Positions 3,395 to 27,575 of a stretch of DNA of 64,000 bases are shown here, piece after piece (position 1 is the stretch's first letter; every line of letters begins with the position of its first letter). The stretch comes from Gammaproteobacteria bacterium (GTDB lineage Bacteria > Pseudomonadota > Gammaproteobacteria > Thiohalobacterales > Thiohalobacteraceae). Location: the NCBI GenBank assembly GCA_019911805.1, contig JAIOJV010000052.1:45413-109412 (forward strand), given 5' to 3'. Position numbers and translations under genes: made by a program. The notes beneath the pieces were generated by a model, which was given only the letters and a program-made list of their open reading frames with translations, was not told the DNA's origin and ran no database searches.

Positions 3395-4324
3395 ATGAGC
3401 GGCGGTCTGGCTGCACTCCTCGACGACGTCGCTGCACTCGCCCGACTGGCAGCGGCCAACGCGGATGACGTTGCAGCGGCGGCTGGACGCGCCAGTGTCA
3501 AGGCAGCGGGCGTGGTGGTCGATGACACCGCTGTCACTCCCCAATATGTCGCTGGGGTCAGCCCGAAGCGCGAACTGCCGATCATCAAGAAGATCGCCAT
3601 CGGCTCCCTGCGCAACAAGCTGCTCATCATCCTTCCCGTCATCCTGTTGCTCAGCCAGTTCCTGCCTGGGTTGCTGACACCACTGCTCATGCTGGGTGGT
3701 ACCTACCTCTGCTTCGAGGGTGCGGAGAAGGTGCTGGAGTTGATCCGTCGTCACGAACCGCAGAAGAAAACACCGGCGATCCTCAAGGGCCCCGAGGCGG
3801 AGGGCACCGTGGTGAAGGGGGCCATCCGGACGGACTTCATCCTCAGCGCCGAGATCATGGTCATCTCCCTGAACGAGGTTGCGGCCGAGGGTTTCCTGTC
3901 ACGCACCATCATCCTGATCATCGTGGCGCTCACGATCACGGCGCTGGTCTACGGTGTCGTGGCGCTCATCGTGAAGATGGACGATGCGGGCCTGGCGCTG
4001 GCTGGTCACGAATCCGAACGCACGCAGGTGGTGGGGAGAGCCATGGTGGCAGCGATGCCCGCGGTGCTTACTACCATTTCCACCATCGGCATCTTTGCCA
4101 TGCTGTGGGTGGGCGGACACATCATCCTCGTCGGCATGGCCGACCTCGGGCTCCACGCGCCGCATGACCTCGTACACCTCCTCGAAGACATCGTGGCACA
4201 CGTGGCGGACATGGGCGGTACCCTGGCCTGGCTCGTGAACACCCTGTGCTCCCTGATGTTCGGAGTCATCTGGGGTGTGGTGGTGGCAGCCGCCCTCCAC
4301 ACCCTCCCATGGCCCAGGAAGTAA
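3395..4324 (+). CDS. DUF808 (YedI-like) inner-membrane protein
   Basis: ORF 3356..4324; start ATG 3395 gives MSGGLAALLDDVAALARLAAANADDVAAAAGRASVKAAGVVVDDTAVTPQYV followed by several hydrophobic helices. This matches my memory of the DUF808 N-terminus. Confidence 0.75.
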   Translation: MSGGLAALLDDVAALARLAAANADDVAAAAGRASVKAAGVVVDDTAVTPQYVAGVSPKRELPIIKKIAIGSLRNKLLIILPVILLLSQFLPGLLTPLLMLGGTYLCFEGAEKVLELIRRHEPQKKTPAILKGPEAEGTVVKGAIRTDFILSAEIMVISLNEVAAEGFLSRTIILIIVALTITALVYGVVALIVKMDDAGLALAGHESERTQVVGRAMVAAMPAVLTTISTIGIFAMLWVGGHIILVGMADLGLHAPHDLVHLLEDIVAHVADMGGTLAWLVNTLCSLMFGVIWGVVVAAALHTLPWPRK

Positions 4325-4591
4325 CGTGCAGACACCCCGGCCGCGCACTCGTCCGGCGACACCACGCCGTAAGGGCCAACCCTGGGGGGCCGGTACTCTG
4401 AAGCTCATGACCCAACTGCTTCTCGACGCCACCGGTGGCGTCGGTGACAAGTTCGTACCCGAGGCGTTGAGTGCGGCTCTGGTGGAACCGGCCTCCGAGT
4501 TCTCACGCACCGGCTCGCGTTCGGACTCGCCGCAGACGCTGCAGCGGGACGCGATCCCGTGCCGGGCACGAGGCCGCAGGCGGTGACCCAT

Positions 4592-7500
4592 TCAGGGTGT
4601 GGCGAGCGACTCCGTCACGGCGGTGGGCAGCAGGCCGAACGCCGCGGAGGCGAGGTTGAGCGCGCTCGTCGGGCTCCCATCGGGGTTCCAGACGTCCGCT
4701 TCGGTGAAGGTGCCGTCGGCGGTGGTCGCCTCGGGCACCGGTGGCCGCAGGCGCTCCGCCGCGAGGCGGCCGGAACCGCCACGTGCGACCAGTGCCCGCG
4801 CCGCCGCGACGACGTCCGCGGGGTGATCGGGGAGCTCGTTCACGGACACCCCCAACCGGTCGGCGCACAACTGTCGACGGAAGGTGAGGATCTCCTGCGG
4901 CCGTCCCTCCTCGACACGATCATCGAACATCGTGACCGCGTAGGAGCTGTCGTAGGAGAGGCCGCGTCGCCAGAGATGCGTCGTACCGACCATCGCCCAC
5001 GCATCGTCCACGATCACGGTGGTGGTCGCCAGCTTGAGCGTGCGTCCCGGTCCCGCCGACGGTGAGAATACCGCCACCCGCGATTGCCGCGTCTGGGAGA
5101 CAAGACGATCCAGCGCCGCGCGTGTCAGCTGGTCGCGGATGCGCTGGAATGCCTTCGGCAGCCCGGTGTCGAAGAACACGGGTATACAGACGAGCACGCG
5201 CAACCCCGGACGCTGGCTCATGCGGGTGAAGAGCGCGTCGAGCAGGTGCACGCGATCATCCGCCTCGCCGAAGGCCAGATCGTCGAGCGCCGGCGTCTCG
5301 ATATAGATGAAGTCCTCGGCGCGTCCGATAGCACGGATCAGCGCCGTGGCGCCCTCGCGCGCGCCTCGCGCGGCGGCGAGGAAACGTCGGTCCAATGCGC
5401 GCGCAACCCGGTTGGCCGGATCGCCGATACCAGCGGGGATCGTTATGCCGATGCCGTCAAGCGCGGACCGGATGCTCTCCAGCCCTGCGCCGAACGGATA
5501 ACCACTGCCCCCCACCAGGGCCGCGAGCTCCGACAGGCCGACCTCGGCCTCCACGCCTGCCGCCACCGTGCGCAACCCCGCCGCCCACAGGCTGTCCGCG
5601 GTGGGCGCCGTGGGCACTGTGAGTTCGTTGTCCGTCACCGTGGTCACGAGGTCGACGGTGTTCGGGGCCAGGCGATCGCGCACGTACTCGGCGATCCCAC
5701 GCACGGCCGGGCCTTCCACCCGGGCACCGACGGCGACCACGTCGGGACCGGCCGGGCAGAGGGGGTGGCCGTCCTGATGCGGCGGTAGGCCGTGCCGGTC
5801 CCCCAGGGCGGGCCCGCCCCCCACCGTTGCACGAGAGGCGCCCGCCGCAGTCGCCGCTGCCACGAGTTCACGCCGCTCCAGCCCTGGATAGGGCTGGCCG
5901 GCCGCCCATGCGTCGGGCAGGGTGCGCGTCGTGCGGCGCACGGTAGCGCCGGTAGCCGCGAGCACGGCCTCACCATCGCCGGTGGGTTCACCCTTGAGAG
6001 CGGGGGCGGTGAGCCGGAGGGTGACGTTCGCGCTCGCCGCAGCAGCGAAGGTGTCCGCAGCACGCATGGCCGTCGTGATGGTCGTCGGGTCCACGAGCGA
6101 GGTGCTCCCGCCGCCGAGGGCGACCACATGCGTCCCGGACGCGATGTTCGCGCCGGCGCCGAGCGTGGCGATCTCGCGCCCCTCCTCACAGAGCAGGAAG
6201 GGGCCACTGGCGCTCGCGGCAGCGACCGCCGACCCGCCCACCGGTACCGGTCGGTTGAAGCGCTGGTCGGCAAAGTGGCGCCGGCCCTGCGCAGTCACCA
6301 CCAGCACGCTCGCGCCCATGGGCGTCTCGGGTGCGGCATCGCCATCGGGGAGCGCGGCCACGATGCGCGCGACGCCGTTCGCGTCCACCAACCCCGCACC
6401 ACCATCCAGGTGGTAGCGCGTACCGGTGGTGTGATCGAAACCCTGTGTCCAGCAACGCACCCAGGTACCGGCGGCCTCGCTGCCCACGTCAGCGGTGAAG
6501 AGTACGCGCTGACCGGCCACGGTACCGCCCACCTCGGCACCGCCGCCCACCAGTGCCTCGGCGGTCAGGGTGAGCGCGGTCGGCGCCGCGACATCGGGCA
6601 GCGTCCCGGTGACCGGGCCCCAGTCGAGCGTGAGCGCCGACGCCACCAGCCCCGCAGGGACAGCCGCGCCGCCGTCCTGCAGCCGCAGCGCCTCGAGGGC
6701 CGTTGCAGCCACAGCGTCCGGGGTGCGCAGCAGACCGGGGCGCGTGGCACGGTCCGCCAGAATGCGCGTGGACGCCCGCTCCTGGTCGGCGGCACGCGTG
6801 CGCACCGGCGCGGCCGCACCGCCGTCTGCATGGCGTGGCTGGCCGGTGAGGTGATGCTCGATGCTCACCACGGCCACGCGCGCGTGATCACGCCGGAGGA
6901 TCGGGTCGAGCGGACCGTCCGTGAAGAGCGACGCGCTGTCGCCGAAGCGTCCATCAGGCAGCACAGCGAGCCGTGGCAGTGGGAAATCATCCGGAGCATC
7001 AGTCGGTGCGGCACTGAACGAGAGGTCCACCGCTCCCGAATCGGTCCCATCGTGGAAACGCACACCACCCGTGCCGGCCACGCTGCCGCCCACGGTGACG
7101 CGGGCGAGCTCCTCCGTCGGCAGCGGTCCGCCAAACGGGTTCACGAGCTGTACGGTGAGCCGGTCCGCGTCCGCCGCCACCGGCACCGTCCGCGTATCCA
7201 CCCCTGCAGCGAACAGCTCCTCGAAGCCGTTGTCGGCATGCGTCGCCATGTACAGCCACCAGCAGGCTGCTGCTCCCGGGTCCACCGCGTGCCCCAGGCG
7301 GTCAAAGGCCCAGAGTCGCACTGCGGTGTTCGTGGGGAACTTGAGCAGGAACTGCGACTCACTTGCCGTCACGCCGGGCCGGAAGGGGTCGCGCATGGGC
7401 GCCGTACCGTTGCCGAGCGCACCGCCGGTGGAAGTGAGTCCCAGGTATTCGAGCCGCTTCGCGTCGGTGTCGACCGTGGCTGGATAAGGAAAGGGCAGTC

Positions 7501-7927
7501 GTCCGTCGAACCACGACACCCCAGCGACGGTATCCACTATTTCCAGTGCAAGCGTTCGCACCACAGACCGCGTTGCCCGGTCGGCGACCGTCGGATTACC
7601 GAGCGTCGGGATGGTACGCATGAGCGCACCGAGTCGCTCCGACGCCTGCGGCAGGAGCTCGTAAACGGCGATGAGGCGACCGTCGGTGAAGGCCAGTCCG
7701 TCCGGCCCGCGAAGGTGGGCCAGGCCGAGTGGACGCGGGTCGCTGGCCACATAGAAGGAGAGGATGCCGGCCGCCGGTGGCCGCCATTCCACCTCGCCGC
7801 CGAGCGTGAGCGGCACCGCCAGGTCGGCGTCGGGGACCGGCAGCTCCACCGAGTCAACGGAGAACCAGGGCCCGAGCACGGGGCTGTGCAGGCCCAGGCT
7901 GCGAGGGGAGGGTGTCAGGGTGATCAT
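4592..7927 (-). CDS. hypothetical 1111-aa protein, gene 4 of giant operon; C-terminal PLD-like lobe lacking His/Lys
   Basis: Uninterrupted 3.3-kb ORF with strongly G/C-biased third positions. The ATG at 7927 lies 5 nt after the stop of the upstream ORF, with a GGAG-like site upstream. The C-terminus (FIYIETPALDD...TTTVIVDDAWAMVGTTHLWRRGLS) resembles one PLD/HKD lobe. Confidence 0.8.
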   Translation of the reverse strand: MITLTPSPRSLGLHSPVLGPWFSVDSVELPVPDADLAVPLTLGGEVEWRPPAAGILSFYVASDPRPLGLAHLRGPDGLAFTDGRLIAVYELLPQASERLGALMRTIPTLGNPTVADRATRSVVRTLALEIVDTVAGVSWFDGRLPFPYPATVDTDAKRLEYLGLTSTGGALGNGTAPMRDPFRPGVTASESQFLLKFPTNTAVRLWAFDRLGHAVDPGAAACWWLYMATHADNGFEELFAAGVDTRTVPVAADADRLTVQLVNPFGGPLPTEELARVTVGGSVAGTGGVRFHDGTDSGAVDLSFSAAPTDAPDDFPLPRLAVLPDGRFGDSASLFTDGPLDPILRRDHARVAVVSIEHHLTGQPRHADGGAAAPVRTRAADQERASTRILADRATRPGLLRTPDAVAATALEALRLQDGGAAVPAGLVASALTLDWGPVTGTLPDVAAPTALTLTAEALVGGGAEVGGTVAGQRVLFTADVGSEAAGTWVRCWTQGFDHTTGTRYHLDGGAGLVDANGVARIVAALPDGDAAPETPMGASVLVVTAQGRRHFADQRFNRPVPVGGSAVAAASASGPFLLCEEGREIATLGAGANIASGTHVVALGGGSTSLVDPTTITTAMRAADTFAAAASANVTLRLTAPALKGEPTGDGEAVLAATGATVRRTTRTLPDAWAAGQPYPGLERRELVAAATAAGASRATVGGGPALGDRHGLPPHQDGHPLCPAGPDVVAVGARVEGPAVRGIAEYVRDRLAPNTVDLVTTVTDNELTVPTAPTADSLWAAGLRTVAAGVEAEVGLSELAALVGGSGYPFGAGLESIRSALDGIGITIPAGIGDPANRVARALDRRFLAAARGAREGATALIRAIGRAEDFIYIETPALDDLAFGEADDRVHLLDALFTRMSQRPGLRVLVCIPVFFDTGLPKAFQRIRDQLTRAALDRLVSQTRQSRVAVFSPSAGPGRTLKLATTTVIVDDAWAMVGTTHLWRRGLSYDSSYAVTMFDDRVEEGRPQEILTFRRQLCADRLGVSVNELPDHPADVVAAARALVARGGSGRLAAERLRPPVPEATTADGTFTEADVWNPDGSPTSALNLASAAFGLLPTAVTESLATP

Positions 7928-7932
7928 CGCCG

Positions 7933-10900
7933 TCAGCTCCGCGTCACGGTGGTGGACGGTGCGCTCAGACGACCGCCGGGATCCAGTGTCACGACACGCC
8001 AGCTCGTGCCGCTGGGCGGGTCATCACCCACGGCATCCACGAAGTGGAAGGTACGGGCCAGATCGGTGCCCGTGGATGCCGTCGGGTCGTCCGCGAGCAC
8101 GGTGCCAACGCGCGTCTCGCGACCACCCGGCAGACGTCGATAGACGTCGAAGCGGTAGCCGCCCATGGCGCCGCGCCGCAGCCGTTCGGGGTGTCGCCAG
8201 GTGATCGTGGCGGCGGTGCCGCTGACGACGAGCGCAAGGCCTGTGGGTGCGGCCGGTGGATCGGGCGGGATAAGCGCCGAGCTGACCGCACCACTGGCCG
8301 GGCTCCATTCGCCCGGCAGGGTGGTGCCCGGGGGCGGTGGTGCCTGCACCTCCACGCGCCATGTCATGCGCGTCCACGGTGGGAGCGAGCCGCCGGCAAA
8401 AGGATCCGTACCGGCATCCAGCAGCTCTATCTCCTGCGGTCCGTCGGTGGCCGGATCGGCGTCCAGCGCGGGTGCCGGTATGTCACCTTCGGCGACGATC
8501 GGCATGCGCAGCGGGTCCGAGTCCGCTACGCTCCGGCGCAGCCGCCAGCGCGCCGCCGGCTGTGGTCCACGGACGACCGTGGCCGTGAAGCGCGCCGCGC
8601 CCTCGTCGCTGAAGCCCTCGAGGTCGAGCAGTGGGCGCGGCGGCGGTCCGCCCGATGGCACGGCCACCGGGAGCAGTGTCGCGGCCGTGAAGTCGCTCTC
8701 CACGTTCTGCACGCTGAGCGCCACGACCTTGAAGAAGGCGAGCACGCGCAGTGAACCCGACAGGTCGTGCGCGTAACGCAGGGCGGTGCCCTGGAGCGGC
8801 GCATCGGTGAGGTTGCTGAACAGGTCGCGCGTGAAGACGGCTGCATGTGCAGGATCGCTCCAGACAGCACCCCGGTGAGCCGCGTCGGGCGCGGCGTCGA
8901 CCGCCGTGACGACCGCTGCGGCGGCGGCATCCCCGGCGCCAGCCCGCTCCGCTAGCGCCGAGCGCAGCCGCGTCTCGTCGCTGGTGTAGACGCGGTACCG
9001 GGCATTCGGCGCGCCGGTCCATGACAACACCACGCGTGCCCGACCCACGGCGTCCGGGCGTGCGCTGTAGCGGAGCGTCGGATCCATCACGAGTGCGGCG
9101 GGTGGGCGCGGATCCACCAGTACCTTGCGCTGCTCCTCGGACGGGTCGCCGTAGCCGTCGTCATCGAACCAGTGAGCGACGAGCCTCGCCTCCACGCTCC
9201 CGGTACGTGCGATCATGCCGGCCGGCGGTGTGATGGTGATGGGGAACTTCGCCGGATGCACTACTGGCAGATTCACCTCCTCGTTGACCGTCACGCCGCC
9301 CACCGTCCCCGAGACCCGGGCGCCCACCAGCGGTCGGCTGCCGGCGGCGAGGTCGTCGACGCGCGGCAGGATGAGCACGGCGCGCAGCGTGCCGAAGCGC
9401 GGCGTATCGTCGAGCGGCGAGTCGTCGGCCAGATCGTACTCCAGCGACAGCACCGGCGCAGGTGGCCGGGTGCGGGGTTTGGCGGCGACGGCGCGGGTGC
9501 CCCAGTCACTCCACCGGCCCCACCAGTCGGCCTGCGCGATCCGATACTCCACCGCATCCGGCGGCGCCGAATCGTCGGCGTAGCGGCCGCTGCCTGTCTC
9601 GGTGGCCCCGTCGGGAACCGTGGGCACGAGGGCGAGCGCACGTCCACTGTCCGGGTGCCGCGCGTTGAGGCTCACGATCGGGCCGGTGCCGCTGTCGTGG
9701 CGAGCGACGGCCAGCGTCGGTGCCGCCGTGAGCCCGGCGAGCGGCAGGGTGATCTCCCGCTGCGCGGCAGGTGGCAGTACCTCGGGCACCCAGGTGCCGA
9801 GCGCGTCGCCCGTCGGCAGCGCCTGGGTCGTGCCGGTGGCCCCCAGCTGCTCGGCGGGCAGGAGCGGCGTACCCACCAGCGGTGCCGATGGGCGCGCTGG
9901 TGGTGCCCCGCGGACGACGAACAGCGGCACGGTGAAGTCGTATACCGGCAGCCCGTCGGCCGACAGGTGCGGCACCGTAAAGGGCAGCGCCAGTACATTC
10001 GCTGGCGCGGTCATCGGGCCACCAGCGACCAGCAGCGATATCAACTGCGCGACATCGAGCTTCGCGTTGTCCACAGCCAGGAAGCCGCGGATGAAATAGA
10101 GCTCGAAGGGCTGTGGATCCGCGGGTGGCAGGTCCACGTCCATGAAGCCCAGCCAGCGCGCCATACCCGGATCCGCAGTACCGGCCAGCACCGCATCCAG
10201 GCTGTTGAGTTGTGCCGTGGCGACGGTGGCACCGCTGGTGACCCCTTCATCGAGGTCGACCGTGCTGCCGAGATCGTGCTGGCGCGTGGAGAGATCCTCG
10301 AGTAGCTGCTTGAGATGCGGTTCGAGCTCACGTGTGAGTGGCTCGACGCGCGTCCATTCGTCATTGTCGGTGGCGGGTGGTGCGAGCGCCGCGGAAGCGA
10401 CGGTGGGGTCGTCGTGCAGCCCCAGCCGCTGCGGTGCGCCGCGGCGCACCCGGTTCTCAGCGGTGTCGCGCGCGAACGGCAGGCCCCGGTAGCGGGGCGC
10501 CGACTCGTACGGCAGGGCGAGGAAACTGGTTGGCTTGAACTTCTCCACCGCGCGTACGTCGGCGGCTACCCAGGCCGCGGCACGCACCACCCCCTCCCCG
10601 GAGATCACCACGCCATCGATGTGCGAACCGGCCACGGTGTACGGCGACGCGGTGCGTTCGCCGATGAAGCGGCGCCCAGCCGTTGTGTCGACATAGGCCG
10701 CTACGACCAGCGCATCCTCCGTTCCATGCGTTTCCATTGGACGGTGGGTGAGGACCGGCGTCCGACGGTTCCGCCCACCCTGTACGCTCACCGCGATCGC
10801 GACCTCGCCGCTGTTGCGCAAGAGGTGGCCCGTGACCGGATTGTCCGGCGTCACGGTGAACGGGAGTGTGAGCACGCGTCCGTACGCATCCACCCAGGCG

Positions 10901-11097
10901 ATGCCGGTACGTGTGCCGCGCGCGACGAGGTCCTGCACGATCTCCTTCTCCACGCGATAGACGAGGAAAGGGCAGACCGGCAGCCCGAGCTGCGGCGCTA
11001 CGTACACCCGGAGATGGATGCCGTCGACAAGGTGGGGGTCGCCGGCACCGTCGATGCCGGAGGCACCCATGGCCCAGCGTGGAGGCAGTGCGCTCAT
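7933..11097 (-). CDS. hypothetical 1054-aa protein, gene 3 of giant operon; FN3-like C-terminal modules
   Basis: Uninterrupted ORF whose ATG (11097-11095) overlaps the upstream stop (11096-11094) as ATGA. The C-terminal 108 aa (PTGLALVVSGTAATITWRHP...GYRFDVYRR...SWRVVTLDPGGRLSAPS) look like a fibronectin type III fold. Confidence 0.8.
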   Translation of the reverse strand: MSALPPRWAMGASGIDGAGDPHLVDGIHLRVYVAPQLGLPVCPFLVYRVEKEIVQDLVARGTRTGIAWVDAYGRVLTLPFTVTPDNPVTGHLLRNSGEVAIAVSVQGGRNRRTPVLTHRPMETHGTEDALVVAAYVDTTAGRRFIGERTASPYTVAGSHIDGVVISGEGVVRAAAWVAADVRAVEKFKPTSFLALPYESAPRYRGLPFARDTAENRVRRGAPQRLGLHDDPTVASAALAPPATDNDEWTRVEPLTRELEPHLKQLLEDLSTRQHDLGSTVDLDEGVTSGATVATAQLNSLDAVLAGTADPGMARWLGFMDVDLPPADPQPFELYFIRGFLAVDNAKLDVAQLISLLVAGGPMTAPANVLALPFTVPHLSADGLPVYDFTVPLFVVRGAPPARPSAPLVGTPLLPAEQLGATGTTQALPTGDALGTWVPEVLPPAAQREITLPLAGLTAAPTLAVARHDSGTGPIVSLNARHPDSGRALALVPTVPDGATETGSGRYADDSAPPDAVEYRIAQADWWGRWSDWGTRAVAAKPRTRPPAPVLSLEYDLADDSPLDDTPRFGTLRAVLILPRVDDLAAGSRPLVGARVSGTVGGVTVNEEVNLPVVHPAKFPITITPPAGMIARTGSVEARLVAHWFDDDGYGDPSEEQRKVLVDPRPPAALVMDPTLRYSARPDAVGRARVVLSWTGAPNARYRVYTSDETRLRSALAERAGAGDAAAAAVVTAVDAAPDAAHRGAVWSDPAHAAVFTRDLFSNLTDAPLQGTALRYAHDLSGSLRVLAFFKVVALSVQNVESDFTAATLLPVAVPSGGPPPRPLLDLEGFSDEGAARFTATVVRGPQPAARWRLRRSVADSDPLRMPIVAEGDIPAPALDADPATDGPQEIELLDAGTDPFAGGSLPPWTRMTWRVEVQAPPPPGTTLPGEWSPASGAVSSALIPPDPPAAPTGLALVVSGTAATITWRHPERLRRGAMGGYRFDVYRRLPGGRETRVGTVLADDPTASTGTDLARTFHFVDAVGDDPPSGTSWRVVTLDPGGRLSAPSTTVTRS

Positions 11098-14000
11098 GTC
11101 CGCTCCTGCAGGACGACCAGCGGAATGGAGTTGATGCTGCGGGAAGCGATGCGCGTGCCGGCTGGTTCGGTGATGCGCAACTGCAGGCTGGCCTGCTCCG
11201 GTACCGCGATGCCGGGTGAGCAGGCGAGGAGCACGCGTGTCGCCGACTCGTTCGAGCGTACGGGCACGAGCGTGGAGGGAGCGGGGGACGCTATGCCCGG
11301 GATACTCGCGTCGAGGATGTCGAGGCGGGGCGGGTTGCTGACCGGATCGATCAGCCGTGGTGCGCGCAGCAGTGCCTCGTCACTATCGAGGAGCAGCCCT
11401 ACCAGCCGCCACTGTGTGTCAACCTCAGTGTCAACCTTAAGCCAGAGCGCCACCGACCGCGGGCCGCTGGCCGGCGCGAATGGATCGAGCCCGATGGCAG
11501 TGAGCGCCGCGTCCAACAGTTCATCGTCGGCGAGCTGCTCGTCGGACGGCGGCGCGCCGGTCACCAGCACGTCGAGCGGATAGAACGGATTGGGTGTCGT
11601 GAAGCCGAAGCCGGTGGCCTCAATGAGTTCAGTGACATCGGTGTAGCGTGAGGCGCGGAAGTGCGAGAGCCCGATGTCGATAGCCGCGCCACCAGCCGAA
11701 GGCACGGCCTGTACCACCAGATCGTAGCGTGCCCGTGGTGCGAGTTCGGCCGTCACCTGCAACGTTGCGCCATCCACCGGTGCATCCTCCAGGCACGGTG
11801 CGGCCACCGCCGCGCTGATGAGTCGCTGGTCGGCCAGGTTGCGCAGCTCGAACGGCAGTCCGCCCCATACGAATGGTTCCAGCAGGGGCAGGATCACTAC
11901 CGGGATGCCCGATGGCGGTGTAGGCGGTGGATCGGTGCGGCGCACGATCACCTGCAGCGCGTAGCCATAGCGGTCGAGCAGGTCCTCGATCCACTCCACC
12001 TCGAACCACACCAGTAGCGGATCGCCGCGCAGATGGGACGGCACTTCGGCCACCGGGTCGAAGCCCCGCAGGTAGCGTGCGAGTGCGCGTGGATCGAACC
12101 GTTGCTGCTTCGCGAAGTCCCGCAGCTCGGCGTCGGGAAGTGTGCCGACATCGGCCGTCCGGAAGTGGAAGCGAGGTGCGTGATCCGTGATCGTAACGCC
12201 GGACGGCGGGGCGTCGAAATCCAGCGTCGACGCCGACGGAGGGGTCTGGGTGGACTCCTCGCCCACCCATACCGCCGCGCGGTACCTGATCTGAACGGCA
12301 TAGCGCATGCCAGGGTCGAGCAACCTGTAGCGTTCGATGGGATTCTCGGTTTCGGTCGCGTTGTTCCACGCATCGCGCAGCTCGTCGCGCGCGGCATCGT
12401 CGTTGTCGGCAGCGACGATGGCGTCGTGCCGGATACCACAGATGCGCACCACGCCGATGTGGAAGTAGGGATAGGGCATCACCTGGAAGGCAGTCCACGG
12501 CCCCGCGATGCGCGGCCGGTAGCGCACGTAGGCACAGCCATGGCGCCCCTTCACCGACACGCTCAGGATTTCGCCGGGCCACGCCTGCGGCTTGCCCTGG
12601 CTCGTTCCAAATACGATCGGCAGTGGCAGCCGCGGCGGCGCCTTGCGATTCACCGTGGCCGACAGGCTGGCGGGCTGGAACAGCGACATGATCTGCGCCA
12701 CGATCTTCTCCTCACCGACGAACGTGTCGATGTCGTGGCAGAAGCTGATCAGGTGTCCCACGCCACGATTCATCTTGATCCGCACGGACAGGATGCCCGC
12801 ACCCCGCAGGGTGATCGCGTGCACCATGCCTGCCGGCCCCCGGGACGTCTCCTGTGCCACGACCCGACCATCGCCATCGAGACCGTACGCGGCAATCGTC
12901 GCAGCCTCGGTCGCGCCGAGTTGTAATGAGACACGATCGGTCTCCGTGGGCAGGGCCGCCTGGAGCGCACCATCGCTGAAGGTCAGCTCGTGGTTGCCGT
13001 CCGGTGCGTTAACGGGGAACTTGTCGGCCGCACCGAGCAGGCCACGCCCGGCGCTGAAGCGCACGTTGCCAATCCTGATCTCGCTGCCGCGGAAGCGCTC
13101 GTAGCGCTTGAGCTGCGCCATATCGAGGCAGCTCGTCTCGCGTCCGCCAATGTCCGGCACGGTGAGGCACACGGCGAGGAGTAATTCCGGCTCCGACACC
13201 TCGGGCACGAACGTGCCCTGGATACCCAGGCTCATCGCCGTGACCGAGGCCCGGGTGTACCGGGGCAATCGCCAGGCGTGCGTGAGCGCCACCGACTCGC
13301 CGGCCGGCGTGAAGGGGATCGGCAGCGCCCCACTCACCCCGGGTTCGAACCCGAAGCCGAAGATGGCGGCCAGCGCGCTGAGCGTCGTCACCGGGAAGCT
13401 GGGCGGCACGCCCTCCATGCCGGCTACGAAGAAGTCGGGCGGGTAGGGCGTGTGGCCGCTCGGCGGTGCCGTGAACTGCACGCGCCCCGGGGCGATCCGC
13501 TTACCGGTGCCGCCGAGCACACAGTAGTGCGTGGGTCGTGGCGCCGGATCGCAGACGCGGCCGAGATTGTCAGCCGGATCGGATGACAGCCCTTCACCAC
13601 CCTCGGTGTGCGCCCGTGACCAGGGCGCCGGATCCCAACGCAGCAGCGCCAGATCCCAGCCTTCGTGCGTGGATGCCGGCGTGCTGCCGTCCGCGGGTAC
13701 GGCGGGACGGAAGGAGGGCATCCACCAGACCGCCGGCCAGGTGTGCGTGTCGAGTGTGGACTCGCTGCCATCGGCCTCTATGCGCACGAGTTCCACTGCT
13801 TGCAATTCGTAGAGGTAGCGCACGCGATTCGTACCCGACCACTCCACCCCTCCCCAACCCTGGGTCGGTGAGGGTGCGAATCCGGTGGGTGTGGTCGGGA
13901 TGCTGGAACGCACGCGGTGAGCGAAACGCAGCACCGGCACCGTATCCGGCCACGCCGTCTGGGCGCTACCCAGCCCGACGAGCGCCTCCTGGCCCGCGCC

Positions 14001-17000
14001 GACCACGCGCGTGAATTTGTCGGCCAGGACCAGGCTGGTCACGAGCGGGTCGGCAGGCGGCGGTGCCAGTGCGGGGGTGGAGCCGACCGTGAAGTCGACG
14101 CAGCCCTTGATGCTGAAGAAGAAGAAATCCACCTTGCCGCAGAACTTGCCGACGAGCTGCGAACCGGTCTCGGTGATGAGCGCTTCGAGTTCGCCCGAGG
14201 CGCTGAGACTGACGATCACCAGGCGCAGCTCGCCAGACACGTACAGCCCGCCGGCGAGCACGAACGGCCGCGTGCCCATTCCCACCAGCACGGAGATGGA
14301 CGCCTTGAGGTAGATGGAGCTACCTCCCCATTTCACACTCAGGCCGGCGCCCATCCCGATCGAGAAGCCCTCGAAGTTGAGCGTGTCGCGTTTGCCGAGC
14401 TTCCGGAGGTGACGCTCCTCCACCATGAAGAACGCCGTCGCCCGAAGGTCGAGAATGTCGGGGAGTAGTTGCACCGTGACCGGACGATCGGGCCGGTCGT
14501 CGCCGCCGTCGGAGCCCACACGCACGTACCCGCCCTGCGTGCTCGTCTGCAGCGGGAAGTAGGCACCGACCGGCACCTGCAGCTTGAGGACGCGCGGGAT
14601 CTCGTAATCGGCGCTGATGGCGACGCCGATGGCCGTGGGATCGATGGAGACGATGCCCAGCAGTTGCAGCCCGCCCCCCGCGGGTGTACTGGAACGGTCT
14701 TCCTCGGCCGCACCAACCGGGGGCTTCACCAATACCGCCTCGATGGAGAAGACGACCGAGATATCGGGGAAGCCGATCGTGAGCATCCCCTTTGCGTTGA
14801 ACGTGAACGCGGCGTCGGGGAGCGTGCCGACCATCGCGCCGAAGCCCACTGCGAACTGGCTGGATTGCGGCTTGTACTTGGTGAGCGACGAACGCCTGTG
14901 CCAGCCGACCTCGCGGGCGTAGACGTCAACGGGATCCAGCCCGTCCAGGTTACGCGCTCCGTTGGCCACGAAGCGACCGGCAAATCCGAACAGGCCGAGA
15001 CCGGTATTGCCCAGCGGGATGCCGGTGGCGAACTGCACACCGCCCTCGATATGCACCATGCTCGGGTCGCGATAGGCGAAGCTGCCCCACGCCTTCAGCT
15101 TGGCCGGGATGATATCGAGCTCCAGGCTCGCCCCGAACCCGTCCGGCAGGATCATCAACTCGCCGCCGCCCTTCACCGCGGCCGGTACGTCGATCGAGGC
15201 CTTGATGCCGCGGATACCTACCGAGATCGACGGCGGCTCGACATCGGTATCGATCTCCAGCCGGATGGTCGTGCGCGAGATCTTCACCACGCCCAGATCA
15301 AGCGCGAACTCGATGTCCACCTCCACCCAGATCGAGCCCGCACCGACACGGATCGCGGTGATTCCCAGCAGCCTGCCGAGCGCGCCGGTGATGGACCACC
15401 GCCCGGGATCGGCGACCTCGAACTGGGCGTCCTCGAAGACGAAGCGTACCCGCTCGAGCAGTGGCTTCGTGGTGTCGTGTTCGTACTCCAGCCCCACGTT
15501 CTTGTAGCGGACCTTGATCGGTTCGCTGGTGGACACGCCCACTGCGCCGCCCAGGTTCGCGCTCACGCCGAATGACGCGGTGTAGTCCACGCCGAGGCGC
15601 ACCTTCATCCCGTCGCTGGCGTCGATCGCCCGCAGGCGTGCCTCTCCCTCCAGCTTCTCGACGATGACCTTGCCATCCTTGATGACGTGCTCGCCATCGA
15701 TCTCGAGCGCCGCCGCGGCCGCCGCGGCGGCGGTGAGGGCGGCGATGCGCACGCCGGCGCCGGCCGGATCATCGGTCGTGATGCTGCCCAGCAGCGCCGG
15801 GGCCAGCGCGAGGGTCACGGCCACCGTCTCGTCGACGCGGCTCGCGGCGTCCGGTTTCACGATGGCGAACAGTCCATCGGCATCGCCCATGGAGTCGAGC
15901 GAGAGCAGGAACGAGGTCTGTCCGCTGCGCTGGTCGGTGGTGAAGCGGGCGATGATGCGCCAGAGATCGGGACCGGTGCCCGGATTCGGATTGACCGGCG
16001 CGACGGTGCTGCCGCCCGACAGTCCCGGTACCTGTACGTCGGTGGACGCCCACTCGAGCGTGATCTGCGCCAGCGTGGGTATCCAGTCCACATCGTTCAC
16101 GATGCTCGGCGAATCCCAGGCTGCCTTCACCGCCAGCCGATAGGCCGGTTGCGGCATGCTCGGATCGTGCGGAGCCGTGGTCTCGGGGTCCTCGCCCGGC
16201 ACCAGGGCGCGCATGAGGTCGGCACCGCGGGTGGCGGACTCGCCGCTGTCCGGTACCGGCGGCGTGGTGGCGGGGTCGCTCAGAATCGCGTAGATGTCCA
16301 CGCCGCGCGCCGCGATCCGCTCCGGACGCGATTGCGTGTCGCCCCAACTGGCGCGCGTGGCATCGTCGTAGTCCACGAGGATGCGCCAGGCCTCGTCGAT
16401 CTCGTCGCGGATCGGGCCGGTAGGCGCGAAGTTCGTCGCGTTGGCGTAGGCCGCGCCGTCGGGGCCGGGCACCATCCCCTGCTCGCCGATGCCCTGGATG
16501 CGCGCCGCATCGACGCCCGCCGCGATGAGCATGTCGCGTCCCTTGGCAAAGCGCTCGTTGGCCAGGTCGCGATTGCGGGTCTCTGTGCTGATCCGGATGT
16601 CACAGCATCGACCGATCACGATGAACCGCGTGTCGCCCGGCAGGGAAGCTACCCAGGCGCTGATGTCGCCGGTGCCGGGAGGAGCGCCGATGAGCGCATC
16701 GTCGGGCGAATCCAGTTGTTCGCTAGTCCCGAGATAGCGCGGGTACGGTCTGGGTGGCCCGAATGGGAGTGCCTCGGATGCATGGATGCGTCGCCACGAC
16801 GTGGGGGTGTTGTCATTGAAGTTCATCCGGATAAACAGATGACGTAGCGGCGACATCGTGGGTGGCGGTGGCGTCGCCGGATCGGTGGGATCGGTGTTCT
16901 CGCCGATCGTCACCTCGGCCAGCGTGCCCTGCGGCACGCTGAGCACACCCCCGCTCAGCGTCGCCGGGGAGGAGGCGGCAATGCGTGCATCGGTGGCGTG

Positions 17001-18614
17001 GAACGCCATCAGGTTCCACGAATTCTCCACCGCCCGGATGGCCGCCGGCACGTTGCTCGTACCGACCACCTGCCGCACCTGACCGGTGCGGTGCCCCACG
17101 AAGAGCGGCCCCACGTCCACCACTTCGATGCGACAGCGGCGCACCTTCTCCTGCCGGTCGGTGAGCGTGACCGTGTGCGTCCCCTGCGCCCAGCCAGTGT
17201 CGAGGTCGAACGTCATCCCCGTACCGCTGCGCGTACTGCCGTCGCTCTCCCACCTCCAGCGCAGGCCGTCGCGATCCTCATCGGTCCACGCGTGTCCCGG
17301 CTCGGCAGGCGGCTGGATGGCCGAGAATTGCACGAAGTCGAGCGCTATGCCTGGCCCGCGCAGGAACACGACCTCATCGAACTCGTGCGAGAAGCCGGTG
17401 TTCGCGTAGCGCACGCGGATATGCGGCAGTAATGCGGTGGTGTCGGTGGAGCGCACGAAGGCGAAGGTGTGTTCGGTCGACACCATTTTGCCGTCGGCAT
17501 CCGGCTGGCGCTGGAACACCACCAGTGTGGGACCACCGGGCGCCATGGGTACGTCGAACCAGCCGGAGTCCGGGCCGAGCGCGAGCTGATGGTCGGGGCG
17601 AAAGAATGACGCGTCGGTGCTTGGCGTCGGGAAGCGCGCAATGATGCGCGCGGTGGGTCCCGTTTCCGCGTGCACGGTGACTGTGTGCGAGCGGCCGGCC
17701 CCGGAGAGCCCGCCCAGTTCCACGACGCGCCCCTCGATCTCCTGATAGAAGCGCAATGTGAGCGCACCGCTGAGCGGCACACCGAGCTCCAGCTGACCCT
17801 CCCCCTGGAACGATGTGGTCGGCTTCCATCCCACGAGCAGGTCGCGGACACCGAGGTTCACATCGCCGATGAACGGGATGTTGCGCGGCAGGAAGAGCGT
17901 CGCCTGCCGAACGGAGAGCCCCTCGAAGTCGGGCCCGTGCTCACGCGCCGTGATGTCGGTGGGGGTGTAGCTGCTGGTGAGGTCGAGCACCACCCGGTCG
18001 ACCGTGAGCCCGAAACCGCTCTCGTGTAACAGCAGGTGGGGCGGTGAGAAGCCCGTTTCGATCACCGTGCCGCTGGGTGTGGTCGGTACCAGCGGATCGG
18101 GGTCGGCAATGAGTCGCACCGAGGTGCCGGACACACCGCCCTCGATGCGCAGCACGCCGCGCGCATACAGCTTCACTCGACTGCCACCGCTCGGCGCCGG
18201 GCGCATGAAGGCGGGTGACGACGGTGATGCCGGAATGACTTCACCCGGCTTGCCGATCGGGATCACGACGGCAACACGGTCGAGCACCAGGTCGAGCAGC
18301 CAGCCGGTGGGTTCGCCCTCGAGGTCGGTGTCCGCGCCACCCGTCACTGCACGCACCCAACCCAGTTGGAACGGCACGCCCACGGTCAGCCCCGGGATCT
18401 CGATCGGGAAGCCGGGCCCGAGGACGAGCCCGATATCGGTGGCGGAACTCACCCGCCCTTCGTGTACGAAGAACGCACCTGATGTGCGCGTCGTCAGGTC
18501 GGCGATGTTGAGCAGTTCTATGAAGCGCTGGACCTCATCGGGTATGAAACCCTGTGCCCCGGGGGGTACCTCGGCAAGGAGATCGAGGAGGGTGGCACCA
18601 CGCACGAAGGCCAT
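11094..18614 (-). CDS. hypothetical giant protein (2506 aa from ATG 18614), gene 2 of giant operon; internal OmpA-like motif
   Basis: 7.5-kb uninterrupted ORF (track 11094..18671). The preferred start ATG 18614 (MAFVRGATLLDLL) is preceded by GGAGGA and lies 1 nt after the upstream stop (TGA-C-ATG). Third-position G/C bias is very strong. Confidence 0.8.
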   Translation of the reverse strand: MAFVRGATLLDLLAEVPPGAQGFIPDEVQRFIELLNIADLTTRTSGAFFVHEGRVSSATDIGLVLGPGFPIEIPGLTVGVPFQLGWVRAVTGGADTDLEGEPTGWLLDLVLDRVAVVIPIGKPGEVIPASPSSPAFMRPAPSGGSRVKLYARGVLRIEGGVSGTSVRLIADPDPLVPTTPSGTVIETGFSPPHLLLHESGFGLTVDRVVLDLTSSYTPTDITAREHGPDFEGLSVRQATLFLPRNIPFIGDVNLGVRDLLVGWKPTTSFQGEGQLELGVPLSGALTLRFYQEIEGRVVELGGLSGAGRSHTVTVHAETGPTARIIARFPTPSTDASFFRPDHQLALGPDSGWFDVPMAPGGPTLVVFQRQPDADGKMVSTEHTFAFVRSTDTTALLPHIRVRYANTGFSHEFDEVVFLRGPGIALDFVQFSAIQPPAEPGHAWTDEDRDGLRWRWESDGSTRSGTGMTFDLDTGWAQGTHTVTLTDRQEKVRRCRIEVVDVGPLFVGHRTGQVRQVVGTSNVPAAIRAVENSWNLMAFHATDARIAASSPATLSGGVLSVPQGTLAEVTIGENTDPTDPATPPPPTMSPLRHLFIRMNFNDNTPTSWRRIHASEALPFGPPRPYPRYLGTSEQLDSPDDALIGAPPGTGDISAWVASLPGDTRFIVIGRCCDIRISTETRNRDLANERFAKGRDMLIAAGVDAARIQGIGEQGMVPGPDGAAYANATNFAPTGPIRDEIDEAWRILVDYDDATRASWGDTQSRPERIAARGVDIYAILSDPATTPPVPDSGESATRGADLMRALVPGEDPETTAPHDPSMPQPAYRLAVKAAWDSPSIVNDVDWIPTLAQITLEWASTDVQVPGLSGGSTVAPVNPNPGTGPDLWRIIARFTTDQRSGQTSFLLSLDSMGDADGLFAIVKPDAASRVDETVAVTLALAPALLGSITTDDPAGAGVRIAALTAAAAAAAALEIDGEHVIKDGKVIVEKLEGEARLRAIDASDGMKVRLGVDYTASFGVSANLGGAVGVSTSEPIKVRYKNVGLEYEHDTTKPLLERVRFVFEDAQFEVADPGRWSITGALGRLLGITAIRVGAGSIWVEVDIEFALDLGVVKISRTTIRLEIDTDVEPPSISVGIRGIKASIDVPAAVKGGGELMILPDGFGASLELDIIPAKLKAWGSFAYRDPSMVHIEGGVQFATGIPLGNTGLGLFGFAGRFVANGARNLDGLDPVDVYAREVGWHRRSSLTKYKPQSSQFAVGFGAMVGTLPDAAFTFNAKGMLTIGFPDISVVFSIEAVLVKPPVGAAEEDRSSTPAGGGLQLLGIVSIDPTAIGVAISADYEIPRVLKLQVPVGAYFPLQTSTQGGYVRVGSDGGDDRPDRPVTVQLLPDILDLRATAFFMVEERHLRKLGKRDTLNFEGFSIGMGAGLSVKWGGSSIYLKASISVLVGMGTRPFVLAGGLYVSGELRLVIVSLSASGELEALITETGSQLVGKFCGKVDFFFFSIKGCVDFTVGSTPALAPPPADPLVTSLVLADKFTRVVGAGQEALVGLGSAQTAWPDTVPVLRFAHRVRSSIPTTPTGFAPSPTQGWGGVEWSGTNRVRYLYELQAVELVRIEADGSESTLDTHTWPAVWWMPSFRPAVPADGSTPASTHEGWDLALLRWDPAPWSRAHTEGGEGLSSDPADNLGRVCDPAPRPTHYCVLGGTGKRIAPGRVQFTAPPSGHTPYPPDFFVAGMEGVPPSFPVTTLSALAAIFGFGFEPGVSGALPIPFTPAGESVALTHAWRLPRYTRASVTAMSLGIQGTFVPEVSEPELLLAVCLTVPDIGGRETSCLDMAQLKRYERFRGSEIRIGNVRFSAGRGLLGAADKFPVNAPDGNHELTFSDGALQAALPTETDRVSLQLGATEAATIAAYGLDGDGRVVAQETSRGPAGMVHAITLRGAGILSVRIKMNRGVGHLISFCHDIDTFVGEEKIVAQIMSLFQPASLSATVNRKAPPRLPLPIVFGTSQGKPQAWPGEILSVSVKGRHGCAYVRYRPRIAGPWTAFQVMPYPYFHIGVVRICGIRHDAIVAADNDDAARDELRDAWNNATETENPIERYRLLDPGMRYAVQIRYRAAVWVGEESTQTPPSASTLDFDAPPSGVTITDHAPRFHFRTADVGTLPDAELRDFAKQQRFDPRALARYLRGFDPVAEVPSHLRGDPLLVWFEVEWIEDLLDRYGYALQVIVRRTDPPPTPPSGIPVVILPLLEPFVWGGLPFELRNLADQRLISAAVAAPCLEDAPVDGATLQVTAELAPRARYDLVVQAVPSAGGAAIDIGLSHFRASRYTDVTELIEATGFGFTTPNPFYPLDVLVTGAPPSDEQLADDELLDAALTAIGLDPFAPASGPRSVALWLKVDTEVDTQWRLVGLLLDSDEALLRAPRLIDPVSNPPRLDILDASIPGIASPAPSTLVPVRSNESATRVLLACSPGIAVPEQASLQLRITEPAGTRIASRSINSIPLVVLQERT

Positions 18615-18615
18615 G

Positions 18616-19479
18616 TCATTCCTCCCGACGCAGACGACCGCTGAGCGTGAGGGAGGTGCGTAACGTATCACGCAGCGCGGTACGGGTCGGGAGGGAGCGA
18701 CGGATGTCGGTCATCCTCAACCTGGCGACGTTGGTGGACGGCCAGAACTGTATGAGAGATGCAGCGACGGTTCCCTCGCCCAGGGTGGAGCGAGGCAGGT
18801 TGGGTCGAATACGTTCCGGAAATGTCACCAGGCCCGGTATCACCCGCCGCACGGGCGCGCTCGGAGCGACCGGGCTGATGATCGGAGCATCGATCGGCAC
18901 GTCCACCGGGGAGGGCGTCACCTCCTTGCGCTGCACGGAACTACCGGGTGCGAGAGGTGCCAGCATCCTTGCCACATACGCGAATGCAGTGGCCGCATCG
19001 TCGTCCGGTGCGTCGTGGTCTGTTCCCGGTGAGACCAGAATGTCGTGCTCGATACCTTTGGTAAGCGCATCGATGTTCGGCGTCTGCCCGCGCCCTGCAT
19101 TCCGGAAGGCGAGTAACGGCGCCAGTCCAGCAGCCTCGGCCGCCGCGTCAAGGGCGATCTGGCGCACGCGTTCGGAGAATGCTTCGTACTGGGCGCGTGC
19201 CGTGGTACTGGATTTCCCGCCCTCGGTATAGAGGAGTGCCAGTCCTACGCCGGAGGCGGATTCAGGAATACCGGATGGTACGAGGGTGCGATTCCATTCG
19301 AGCGCCGCAGTGCCGGCCTGTGGTCCCGGGGCATGGATCCATGATGATGCGGTGACATCCCCGAGCAGCGCACGCATCGCATCGCCATCGACGGCAAACC
19401 ATACCGGCCAGACGAGTGGCTCACGCAGTGCGATCGCGCCTCGCACCTGAACTCCGTTGAACTCCAGCGCCACTCGCAT
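18616..19479 (-). CDS. hypothetical 287-aa protein, gene 1 of giant operon
   Basis: ORF 18616..19512. ATG 19479 (MRVALEFNGVQVRG) is preceded by GGAGAG at 6-nt spacing. I recognise no domain. Confidence 0.65.
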   Translation of the reverse strand: MRVALEFNGVQVRGAIALREPLVWPVWFAVDGDAMRALLGDVTASSWIHAPGPQAGTAALEWNRTLVPSGIPESASGVGLALLYTEGGKSSTTARAQYEAFSERVRQIALDAAAEAAGLAPLLAFRNAGRGQTPNIDALTKGIEHDILVSPGTDHDAPDDDAATAFAYVARMLAPLAPGSSVQRKEVTPSPVDVPIDAPIISPVAPSAPVRRVIPGLVTFPERIRPNLPRSTLGEGTVAASLIQFWPSTNVARLRMTDIRRSLPTRTALRDTLRTSLTLSGRLRREE

Positions 19480-19568
19480 GGGCGACTCTCCATCCATTGG
19501 TGAATGCCACACTGTTCTGACAGTGCACTGCCGACATTTGAGTCCACTCCGTCGAGGCAGCGGTCAGC

Positions 19569-19597
19569 AGAGTACGTCGCTGCAACGCACTTTGCAA
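19569..19597 (-). promoter_or_regulatory. candidate sigma70-type promoter for the giant operon (TTGCAA-N17-TACTCT)
   Basis: Minus-strand TTGCAA (19597-19592), a 17-nt spacer and TACTCT (19574-19569), about 90 nt upstream of ATG 19479. This is a sequence match only. Confidence 0.25.
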
Positions 19598-19747
19598 TAG
19601 CGCGCCCACAGGATCGTGACGATACACACACACCGATTTCTGCGGCGCGAGAATCTGATGCACAGATCGATGGTGTACGGTCTGTTGAGCGCCGTGGCGC
19701 ATCGTGCTACAGCGCGAAACGATCGCACGGGGTAGATGTTCGCCACG

Positions 19748-20533: not shown

Positions 20534-20545
20534 GGACGAATGCGT

Positions 20546-21163: not shown

Positions 21164-21542
21164 CCTCCTGTATGGCGGGTCGAAGTGCCAGACTGCCGTC
21201 TGTGTCGCCCGACATCTGAGATTTTAGCAGACCGATGCGATTCGGTGGATCCGGCCCGCTGCAAGCGGGGTGCACAGGTGCTTCAATCAGTGTCGACAAT
21301 CAGTCTTTTCCAATCACGACTGTCCGGTTAAATGACTCGGCCCGAATCCAGAATCAAGCATTGGCGCGGGCTGTAAGCCGATTTTGTTTAGGTGCCGATG
21401 TGCACTGCGCCGGCGTGTGCTGCGGCCGGGGGGGGGTGTATTGTGCTGGCGACCGGCGCCCTCACGAGACATACCAGGGGGACGCTCCCGTAGAAGGACA
21501 GGCGCGCAGCGGCGCACCGGCGGCCACCCCTGACCGGCCAGA

Positions 21543-24641: not shown

Positions 24642-24657
24642 CCCGAAAGCCCTGGTT

Positions 24658-24788: not shown

Positions 24789-24807
24789 TGAAGAAAGTTT
24801 TTCAGGA

Positions 24808-27569: not shown

Positions 27570-27575
27570 GCTGGC

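Follow-up and report, generated by a model that had tools for sequence, protein, structure and literature searches.

The stretch of DNA analysed here, referred to as the window, covers 64,000 nucleotides of a gammaproteobacterial metagenome-assembled genome (MAG) and contains a block of four adjacent minus-strand genes, g1 to g4, here called the cassette. An earlier reading of the letters alone (the sequence-only reading) had described these open reading frames (ORFs) as a translationally coupled, genuinely coding operon that it could place in no known system, and all four were recovered with the boundaries it gave:

g1, positions 18616 to 19479, minus strand: 287 aa as called, with a possible extension to a GTG at 19512
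g2, positions 11094 to 18614, minus strand: 2506 aa, the putative giant core subunit, an end-to-end homologue of DUF6603-type giant proteins
g3, positions 7933 to 11097, minus strand: 1054 aa, the obligate partner of g2, with an N-terminal region of ~430 aa followed by fibronectin type III (FN3)- and immunoglobulin (Ig)-like modules
g4, positions 4592 to 7927, minus strand: 1111 aa, a protein with a two-lobed phospholipase D (PLD) fold and large beta-rich additions, present in 83% of cassettes
Upstream intergenic region, positions 19480 to 19747, minus strand: 268 bp, the presumed promoter region of the cassette, at the edge of a GC-rich island

Direct reading of the sequence confirmed the junctions that had been reported, with g1 and g2 joined as GGGAGGAA-TGA-C-ATG, g2 and g3 overlapping as ATGA, and g3 and g4 separated as TGA-CGGCG-ATG. 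GC content at third codon positions is 0.82-0.83 in g2 to g4 and 0.69 in g1. Compared with orthologues from three related loci (L009-L011, 62-89% identity), the ratio of nonsynonymous to synonymous substitution rates is 0.09-0.18 for g2 to g4, with g2 itself at 0.13-0.18, and 0.19-0.28 for g1. These ratios identify the four ORFs as real, constrained genes rather than chance ORFs of GC-rich DNA, and full-length homologues were found for g2, g3 and g4. All four are tightly coupled and evolve under purifying selection. An N-terminal motif common to g2 homologues supports ATG 18614 as the start of g2. A sequence scan of the 268-bp upstream region found neither a sigma-70 consensus nor a terminator.

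How much of this block is a conserved unit was assessed with a g3 profile searched against one genome per species (185,579 species), which recovered 68 loci in Gemmatimonadota, Myxococcota, Chloroflexota, Actinomycetota, Acidobacteriota, Bacteroidota, and Alpha- and Betaproteobacteria. Seven assembled contigs carry identical copies of the window locus, within the same flanks. Directly before g3 comes g2 in 54 of 55 evaluable loci, the sole exception being a Burkholderiales MAG (L066). There, ~6.5 kb (3488-10001 of that locus), including a ~1420-aa ORF on the opposite strand, separates a g2 fragment from g3, and this DNA may be an insertion that disrupted the cassette. Immediately downstream of g3, g4 is found in 45 of 54 loci, while nine loci carry g2 and g3 only, with nothing filling the place of g4; plasmid pAMI4 of Paracoccus aminophilus JCM 7686 also has g2 and g3 only. 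The most distant branch, in which g2 identity falls to 20-27% and the gene is annotated DUF6603, keeps three coupled genes, the second encoding a remote homologue of g3 (hhalign E 7.5e-22) and the third a remote homologue of g4 (E 2.6e-65). Outside the closest clade, g2 is the first gene of the cassette. By these comparisons the conserved unit consists of a g2-g3 core to which g4 is usually joined, and these three genes keep together in at least eight bacterial phyla; g1 is an addition specific to one lineage. The four-gene unit of the sequence-only reading thus holds for g2, g3 and g4, which co-occur in unrelated genomes, but not for g1.

The proteins are rare. The g2 family amounts to 30 clusters at 90% identity among 5.8 billion, while for g3 there are 49 homologue clusters and, in a set of 1.84 billion proteins, 888 representatives at E<=1e-3, of which nearly all are full length. 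Monoderms of the Actinomycetota or Chloroflexota make up about half of the carriers. Cultured carriers include Paracoccus aminophilus (pAMI4), Sphingobium lactosutens, Derxia gummosa and Methylibium rhizosphaerae, together with members of Planotetraspora, Ornithinimicrobium, Pseudactinotalea and Sandarakinorhabdus. The pAMI4 locus (L077, 430-11440; NC_022049.1) lies on a 438-kb mobilizable megaplasmid of a cultured strain, and its two genes bear the annotations 'outer membrane protein' (WP_020952543.1) and 'hypothetical protein' (WP_020952542.1). Near this cassette are a Phd/VapC toxin-antitoxin pair and a gene with a CHAP domain. Antisense ORF-calling artefacts in high-GC loci (cluster C2) were left out of the analysis. 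A single-linkage cluster joining g2 and g3 also proved to be an ORF-calling artefact, and there is no internal homology between the two.

The largest protein, g2, is homologous to its relatives from end to end, with invariant columns across residues 147-2460. Three regions could be delimited in it, the first from the family profile compared with the PDB and the other two from an AlphaFold2 (AF2) model of residues 640-1839, about half of the protein:

OmpA_C-type peptidoglycan-binding domain, positions 16335 to 16697, minus strand: g2 residues ~640-760, by family profile against the PDB
Two Ala-rich hydrophobic helices, positions 15702 to 15842, minus strand: g2 residues ~925-971, between the peptidoglycan-binding domain and the beta core
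Giant amphipathic beta-meander, positions 14022 to 15692, minus strand: g2 residues ~975-1531, by AF2, the DUF6603 region of relatives

The sequence-only reading had noticed an OmpA-like signature, and the g2 family profile bears this out, matching the C-terminal domain of OprF (E 1.3e-8), OmpA (1e-5) and Pal (4e-4), as well as RmpM and YiaD. In the single g2 sequence of the window the domain falls below Pfam thresholds; a Pfam OmpA match does occur in its relative P0023. The peptidoglycan motif GR(C)CD...N-x-x-L-[AS]-x-x-R is conserved in 18 diverse members, both monoderm and diderm, with L684 and R688 of g2 invariant. Residues ~640-760 thereby retain the Asp and Arg with which OmpA_C domains touch the peptide stem of peptidoglycan, and binding is predicted; in the AF2 model this domain adopts a beta-alpha-beta-alpha-beta order. 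Beyond it, the Ala-rich helices (residues 288-303 and 311-330 of the modelled segment, g2 927-969) have the conserved consensus LALAPALL..GI..DD.AGA.VR..AL.AA.AA.AAL.

The beta-meander that comes next is the most conserved part of g2 by its conservation profile, and in the AF2 model it consists of about 30 consecutive antiparallel strands of 10-18 residues, in which hydrophobic and polar residues strictly alternate. The model of the segment as a whole has a predicted local distance difference test score (pLDDT) of 65 and a predicted template modelling score (pTM) of 0.40, with pLDDT reaching 80-90 over residues 1140-1520. Foldseek searches with it returned weak matches (E 1e-5 to 1e-3, template modelling score (TM) <= 0.28) to giant beta-barrels, namely LptD, Deinococcus SlpA/SDBC, FimD/PapC, SprA and BtuB, and also to the beta-belt of ApoB100 (E 6e-4). 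Against viral models it gave weak porin and tail-fibre-like matches only, none of them better. The relatives P0023 (40.7 bits) and P0024 (36.9 bits), which are homologous to g2 with E values of 2e-56 and 2e-48, pass the DUF6603 (PF20248) model in a region aligned to g2 ~1000-1220, while the g2 of the window and its close relatives have no DUF6603 match even at E<=10. The tie of g2 to DUF6603 is one of transitive homology only. In g2 relatives, PKD domains occur before the OmpA-type domain and Big_5 after residue ~1940, at indel-rich positions, and scanning more relatives with Pfam yielded nothing beyond PKD, OmpA, DUF6603 and Big_5.

Three short g2 motifs hardly vary over the range from Actinomycetota to Proteobacteria. 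One, M-x-[KR]-R-G-[IV]-[ST]-L-L-D-L at residues 1-12 (nt 18579-18614), is common across phyla and might serve in targeting or docking as a signal not recognised so far. The second, GIPLGxTGLGIFGFxGxFVSNGxR, lies at residues 1196-1222 (nt 14949-15029). The third, GxFCGxVxFFFFSxxGCV at residues 1484-1512 (nt 14079-14165), contains the invariant cysteines C1492 and C1505, which sit on a predicted hairpin and could form a disulfide.

The partner protein g3 has a conserved N-terminal part of ~430 residues, followed by FN3-like modules with WSxWS-like motifs, of which the last are delimited as follows:

Two FN3-like modules with a WSxWS-like 'GEWSPAS' motif, positions 7948 to 8610, minus strand: g3 residues ~830-1050, by profile against the PDB

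The FN3-like character had been suspected from the letters alone and is suggested at family level as well, where the g3 profile weakly matches the FN3 domains of the IL-21 receptor (E 0.007) and neogenin (E 0.2). A Pfam scan of 30 g3 members gave no fn3 match, and in these, as in 26 members of the g4 family, it returned marginal Ig matches only.

For g4, AF2 gave a confident model, with a pLDDT of 85.5 and a pTM of 0.90. Foldseek returned human PLD2 as the best match (E 3.8e-11, probability 1.0), and the series of matches to human PLD2 and PLD1, plant PLD alpha, Streptomyces PLD, PssA and PLD3/4 spans E values of 4e-11 to 1e-7, with 450-500 aligned columns and TM (target) values of 0.42-0.51. 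The protein has the two-lobed PLD alpha/beta fold, and its best matches are lipid-acting PLDs. The two places at which the catalytic motifs of these enzymes would lie can be recognised in a 26-member alignment:

Degenerate first 'HKD' motif, positions 6833 to 6910, minus strand: g4 residues 340-365, R-D-[H/F/Q]348-x-R350-V...E357..L360-x-G362
Second PLD lobe, positions 4838 to 5356, minus strand: g4 residues 858-1030, with HxK replaced by [AS]-[ST]-T and an invariant G981-[TS]-[TA]-H984-L-x-R987-[RK]-G989

The canonical HxK(x)4D(x)6G[ST]xN signature is absent, both HxK pairs being lost in all 26 members; the canonical motif Asn is replaced by an invariant His984 in every one of them. The segment G-[TS]-[TA]-H984-L-x-R-[RK]-G, which occupies the canonical GSxN position, is the most conserved motif of g4. 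A motif search found no HxK in the protein and the Pfam PLDc models had no match at E<=10. The sequence-only reading had described one PLD-like lobe lacking catalytic residues, of which the fold and the loss of the catalytic pair stand, while both lobes rather than one are present. It had also stated that HxK is missing throughout, which is correct for g4 but not for g3, where H261-L-K (in HLKQLLED) is the sole HxK noted, though it is not conserved in the g3 family. From the model and the alignment together we assign g4 with confidence to the two-lobed PLD fold, with a conserved putative replacement pocket.

The first gene is of narrower distribution. In g1, a conserved N-terminal domain of ~130 aa is followed by a variable Pro-rich linker and a conserved basic C-terminus of ~60 aa, with no Pfam or PDB match. 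Its homologues are confined to the closest clade (L009-L012) and to identical contigs (L001-L003). A hidden Markov model of the g1 clade, used to look for fused or hidden copies in other lineages, gave low-complexity matches only, and a ~250-aa ORF upstream of another cassette (L007), considered as a counterpart, is unrelated to g1.

Across all four proteins, Pfam, NCBIfam and PHROGs returned no match at E<=1-10 except for one NCBIfam match at E 0.26, and PADLOC (PADLOC-DB v2) returned 0 families at E<=0.01, in agreement with the view that the genes belong to no known system. Motif searches detected no Walker A, DExD, YD/RHS, lipobox or LPXTG sequence, and Pfam and motif searches together no NTPase, helicase or nuclease motif. 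N-terminal hydropathy and motif scans (no dedicated predictor) gave no signal peptide, the N-termini being hydrophilic and conserved, and there is no N-terminal twin-arginine (Tat) motif, RR matches being internal only (g3 974 and g4 685). No 19-residue window reaches a Kyte-Doolittle value of 1.8, and there is no convincing transmembrane helix; the highest windows (1.58-1.79) fall in predicted beta-strands and in one Ala-rich helix of g2 (1.58 at residue 952). The lack of Walker A, YD/RHS repeats, signal peptide and obvious transmembrane helix, as read from the translations, therefore agrees with the scans. The library searches gave no Tc, RHS, contractile injection or defence signature, and a literature search found nothing on DUF6603, PF20248 or these proteins.

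The cassette forms a compositional island (window 4400-19200), with a GC content of 0.65-0.75 vs 0.51-0.66 in its flanks. Its closest relatives, at 84-89% protein identity, lie in Gemmatimonadales MAGs and have unrelated flanks, a combination that points to inter-phylum transfer. This suggests that the cassette was horizontally transferred between phyla fairly recently, or that the MAG is taxonomically mis-assigned. Across the surveyed loci, 148 flanking ORFs carry 95 Pfam families, no family occurs in more than two loci, and none of these ORFs is a conserved neighbour. At the cassette we found no tRNA gene, no meaningful flanking repeats and no integrase; phage and IMG/VR collections had no matches, and a plasmid search had one match only. 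The absence of a phage or integrase link noted from the letters alone is borne out by these searches and by PHROGs.

Directly upstream of the cassette, on the minus strand (window 19748-32953), lies a copper/metal-homeostasis cluster of PpoB2/DUF2182, DUF1326, a resistance-nodulation-division pump of AcrB/CusA type (1095 aa), an HlyD/CusB-type adaptor and a P-type ATPase with two HMA domains. The sequence-only reading had allowed that the DUF1326/DUF2182 pair might share the transcription unit of the cassette. This does not hold up, as the pair never accompanies the cassette elsewhere and belongs with the CusA/CusB/CopA-type copper cluster. At the other end, the stop codon of g4 is followed at once (TGA-ATG) by a 230-aa minus-strand ORF without a Pfam match (window 3899-4591). 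It overlaps a well-supported plus-strand DUF808 gene, with plus-strand ORFs at 3356-4324 and 4326-4586, and public gene calls place an 86-aa plus-strand ORF at the site instead; the minus-strand ORF is probably spurious. Elsewhere, a locus from a Candidatus Nanopelagicales MAG (L079, 13186-19186 and 1-1356) has a two-gene g2+g3 cassette with an Hcp-like tube protein, three ~450-aa proteins without assignment and a CHAT protease downstream, and WYL regulators upstream. These neighbours recur in no other locus and look like a separate conflict system in the actinobacterium. A caspase-TPR gene adjoins one further cassette (L080).

What the g2-g3-g4 unit does can be approached from these features, and the explanation we tentatively favour, with clearly less than even confidence, is that it is a self-contained mobile cassette encoding an NTP-independent, envelope-acting complex that is released and attacks another cell in the manner of the Tc toxins. 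We infer that the three proteins form a complex that acts outside the cytoplasm, engages a membrane, binds a ligand and has a toxin-like role. Under this proposal, g2 would bind peptidoglycan through its OmpA-type domain, engage or perforate a lipid membrane with its amphipathic beta-sheet of ~550 residues (the DUF6603 region, as a barrel or a belt) and carry variable Ig-like decorations, and g3, rich in FN3 modules, would serve as a scaffold or as an arm for adhesion. As a derivative of a two-lobed phospholipase D, g4 would keep a strictly conserved His/Arg pocket with which it binds a phosphodiester head-group, of a phospholipid or a wall polymer, or possibly cleaves it by non-canonical chemistry. 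After synthesis in the cytoplasm the complex would leave the cell, through lysis or along a non-classical route, and would then attach to the envelope of another cell and damage it. It is the lack of an export signal together with the lack of an energy source that favours a Tc-toxin-like route.

Several lines of evidence point towards this proposal. Co-inheritance of the genes, including the coupled triad in the branch at 20-27% identity, is consistent with a functional unit, and the variable flanks, the GC-rich island and the relatives in another phylum suggest a stand-alone cassette. The OmpA_C, PKD, Big_5 and FN3-like domains, the predicted amphipathic strands and the invariant Cys pair suggest action at an envelope, and the PLD fold of g4, with its lipid-acting best matches and conserved non-canonical pocket, would suit a phospholipid or wall polymer as its ligand. 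The lack of an NTPase motif, of a Pfam or NCBIfam enzyme match, and of a signal peptide or transmembrane helix is likewise what such a complex would be expected to show. The letters alone had already suggested an assembly of several subunits, largely non-enzymatic and possibly anchored to the envelope, and the OmpA-type domain, the FN3/Ig modules and the HxK-less PLD fold are in keeping with this.

Other observations weigh against the proposal. No lysis, secretion or immunity gene travelling with the cassette was found in the flanks. Conservation extends over the whole length of the proteins, which have none of the variable tips that mark polymorphic toxins, and g4, besides having lost the canonical catalytic residues, can be dispensed with, as about 17% of cassettes show. 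The models cover only g4 and about half of g2, and the g2 model is of moderate quality, so that with matches at low TM a barrel, a belt and a sandwich are indistinguishable; ordinary soluble beta-sandwiches also contain amphipathic beta-strands. A more far-reaching form of the proposal, which we regard as doubtful, is that the triad represents an unrecognised class of nanomachine, in which a signal-less protein of ~2500 residues would deliver a ~30-strand barrel or belt to a membrane without the beta-barrel assembly machinery (BAM) or ATP, held by a peptidoglycan anchor and equipped with an FN3-rich arm and a PLD-fold head-group binder, the whole being a weapon or breaching device spread by horizontal gene transfer through monoderm and diderm phyla.

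The sporadic, transfer-driven spread of a stand-alone cassette would also suit envelope-level anti-phage defence or abortive infection, in which peptidoglycan-anchored g2 would sense or block phage-induced damage (cf. ZorB) and g4 would be a PLD-fold effector or sensor. PLD folds and OmpA-type anchors both occur in known defence systems. Conflict-type genes adjoin two loci, as described above (WYL, Hcp-like and CHAT genes in L079, caspase-TPR in L080), and a few flanking ORFs, one for each, resemble JetD, AbiEi or mad genes. Every defence model with a match (JetD, AbiEi, mad3/8, BrxL-like, regulators) has it in only one of the 148 flanking ORFs, a count with no background rate for comparison, and none recurs; the neighbours in L079 are unique to it. 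None of the four proteins has a PADLOC match or an NTPase, helicase or nuclease motif, and three proteins rich in FN3, PKD and Ig modules would be unusual for cytoplasmic immunity. On balance we consider a defence role unlikely.

The succession of OmpA_C domain, helices and large beta region in g2 mirrors the anchor-stalk-barrel order of SlpA, and the Foldseek matches to SlpA/SDBC, LptD and ushers, along with the RefSeq label 'outer membrane protein' on the Paracoccus homologue, could be read to mean that the cassette builds part of the producer's own envelope. In that case g2 would form a giant beta-barrel in the membrane and be fastened to peptidoglycan in the manner of OmpA, OprF or Deinococcus SlpA, while g3 and g4 would be its partners at the surface or in the periplasm. 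These structural matches are weak, however, and no Sec, Tat or lipoprotein signal occurs in any subunit or lineage examined. About half of the carriers are monoderm and have no outer membrane, and the presence of only 68 loci among 185,579 species genomes, with variable flanks, argues against a core envelope role, which leaves this explanation rather improbable. Least convincing, and in our estimate very improbable, is an intracellular lipid or particle coat in which the beta-belt of g2 wraps a hydrophobic body as in ApoB100, g4 binds phospholipid head-groups and nothing acts outside the cell, given that the ApoB100 match, the strongly amphipathic strands, the lack of export signals and a PLD fold without catalytic residues stand against a conserved peptidoglycan-binding domain that would have no ligand in the cytoplasm, FN3/PKD/Ig modules and conserved Cys pairs atypical of cytoplasmic proteins, and the absence of lipid-metabolism genes linked to the cassette. 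The remaining probability falls to something not yet imagined.

Whichever explanation proves right, each cassette represents about 4,700 residues of conserved protein under purifying selection without functional annotation, inherited together in lineages that range from Gemmatimonadota to Actinomycetota, Chloroflexota, Myxococcota, Bacteroidota and Proteobacteria. If the complex does act on envelopes, it would be a new architecture among the few NTP-independent giant toxin or envelope machines, DUF6603 would gain a function, and the PLD fold would have been rebuilt around a different pocket. The existence of cultured carriers makes the question directly testable.

Among known systems, the Tc (ABC) toxins of Photorhabdus and Yersinia, composed of TcA, TcB and TcC, are encoded by coupled genes for an A subunit of ~2500 aa and two partners of ~1000 aa. 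They have neither signal peptides nor an NTPase, bear Ig-like decorations and show a patchy distribution driven by horizontal gene transfer. The cassette resembles them in its three very large coupled genes, their size classes and the absence of export signals, and likewise in its lack of an NTPase, its Ig-like decorations and its patchy spread by horizontal transfer. It differs in having no VRP1, neuraminidase-like or TcA-TcB-binding domain (Pfam at E<=10, NCBIfam) and no RHS/YD repeats (Pfam and motif search), and in place of an RHS cocoon its partners are a protein rich in FN3 modules and one with a PLD fold; the core of g2 is predicted to be beta-rich, whereas the TcA channel is alpha-helical. 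The PDB matches by sequence and by fold include no Tc structure, and the PDB profile search with g2 returns only OmpA domains. Contractile injection systems, type VI secretion systems and phage tails differ from the cassette, which has no PHROGs match and no recurring sheath, tube, baseplate or spike genes in its flanks, the one Hcp-like gene being found at a single locus (L079). In Zorya, a peptidoglycan-anchored ZorA/ZorB complex forms part of a multi-gene, sporadic system with an OmpA-type domain in one subunit. The cassette is likewise multi-gene and sporadic, with such a domain in g2, but it has no MotA/MotB-like transmembrane subunits, no ZorC/ZorD-type helicase or nuclease and no PADLOC match.

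The likenesses of single subunits extend further. With the OmpA, OprF and Pal anchors g2 shares an OmpA_C domain with the conserved D/N/L/R motif, and with SlpA/OmpM tethers an order of anchor, helices and many long antiparallel strands, as well as the weak fold matches to SlpA, LptD and ushers. Unlike proteins of the OmpA and SlpA type, it has no signal peptide, occurs in monoderms, does not exceed a TM of 0.28 against them, is always paired with g3, and includes a 640-aa N-terminal region and a C-terminal region of ~1000 aa without an assigned fold. The cassette proteins also differ from classically exported surface proteins in having no Sec/Tat signal, lipobox or sortase signal. Both lobes of g4 resemble those of two-lobed PLDs (PLD1/2, plant PLD alpha, Streptomyces PLD, PssA), and in its sequence one can still make out the 'IYIETP' strand and the 'G-[ST]-x-[N->H]-x-x-R' segment; what sets it apart is the loss of both HxK pairs, a His in place of the motif Asn, and about 600 extra beta-rich residues. 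On these comparisons the g2-g3-g4 unit can be assigned to no described kind and is best regarded as a candidate new system with a hypothetical function. Its likeness to the DUF6603 giant proteins, whose model the g2 of the window does not match at E<=10, lies in distant homologues that align with g2 over its full length (P0023-P0025), pass the threshold of that model and keep the same three-gene arrangement.

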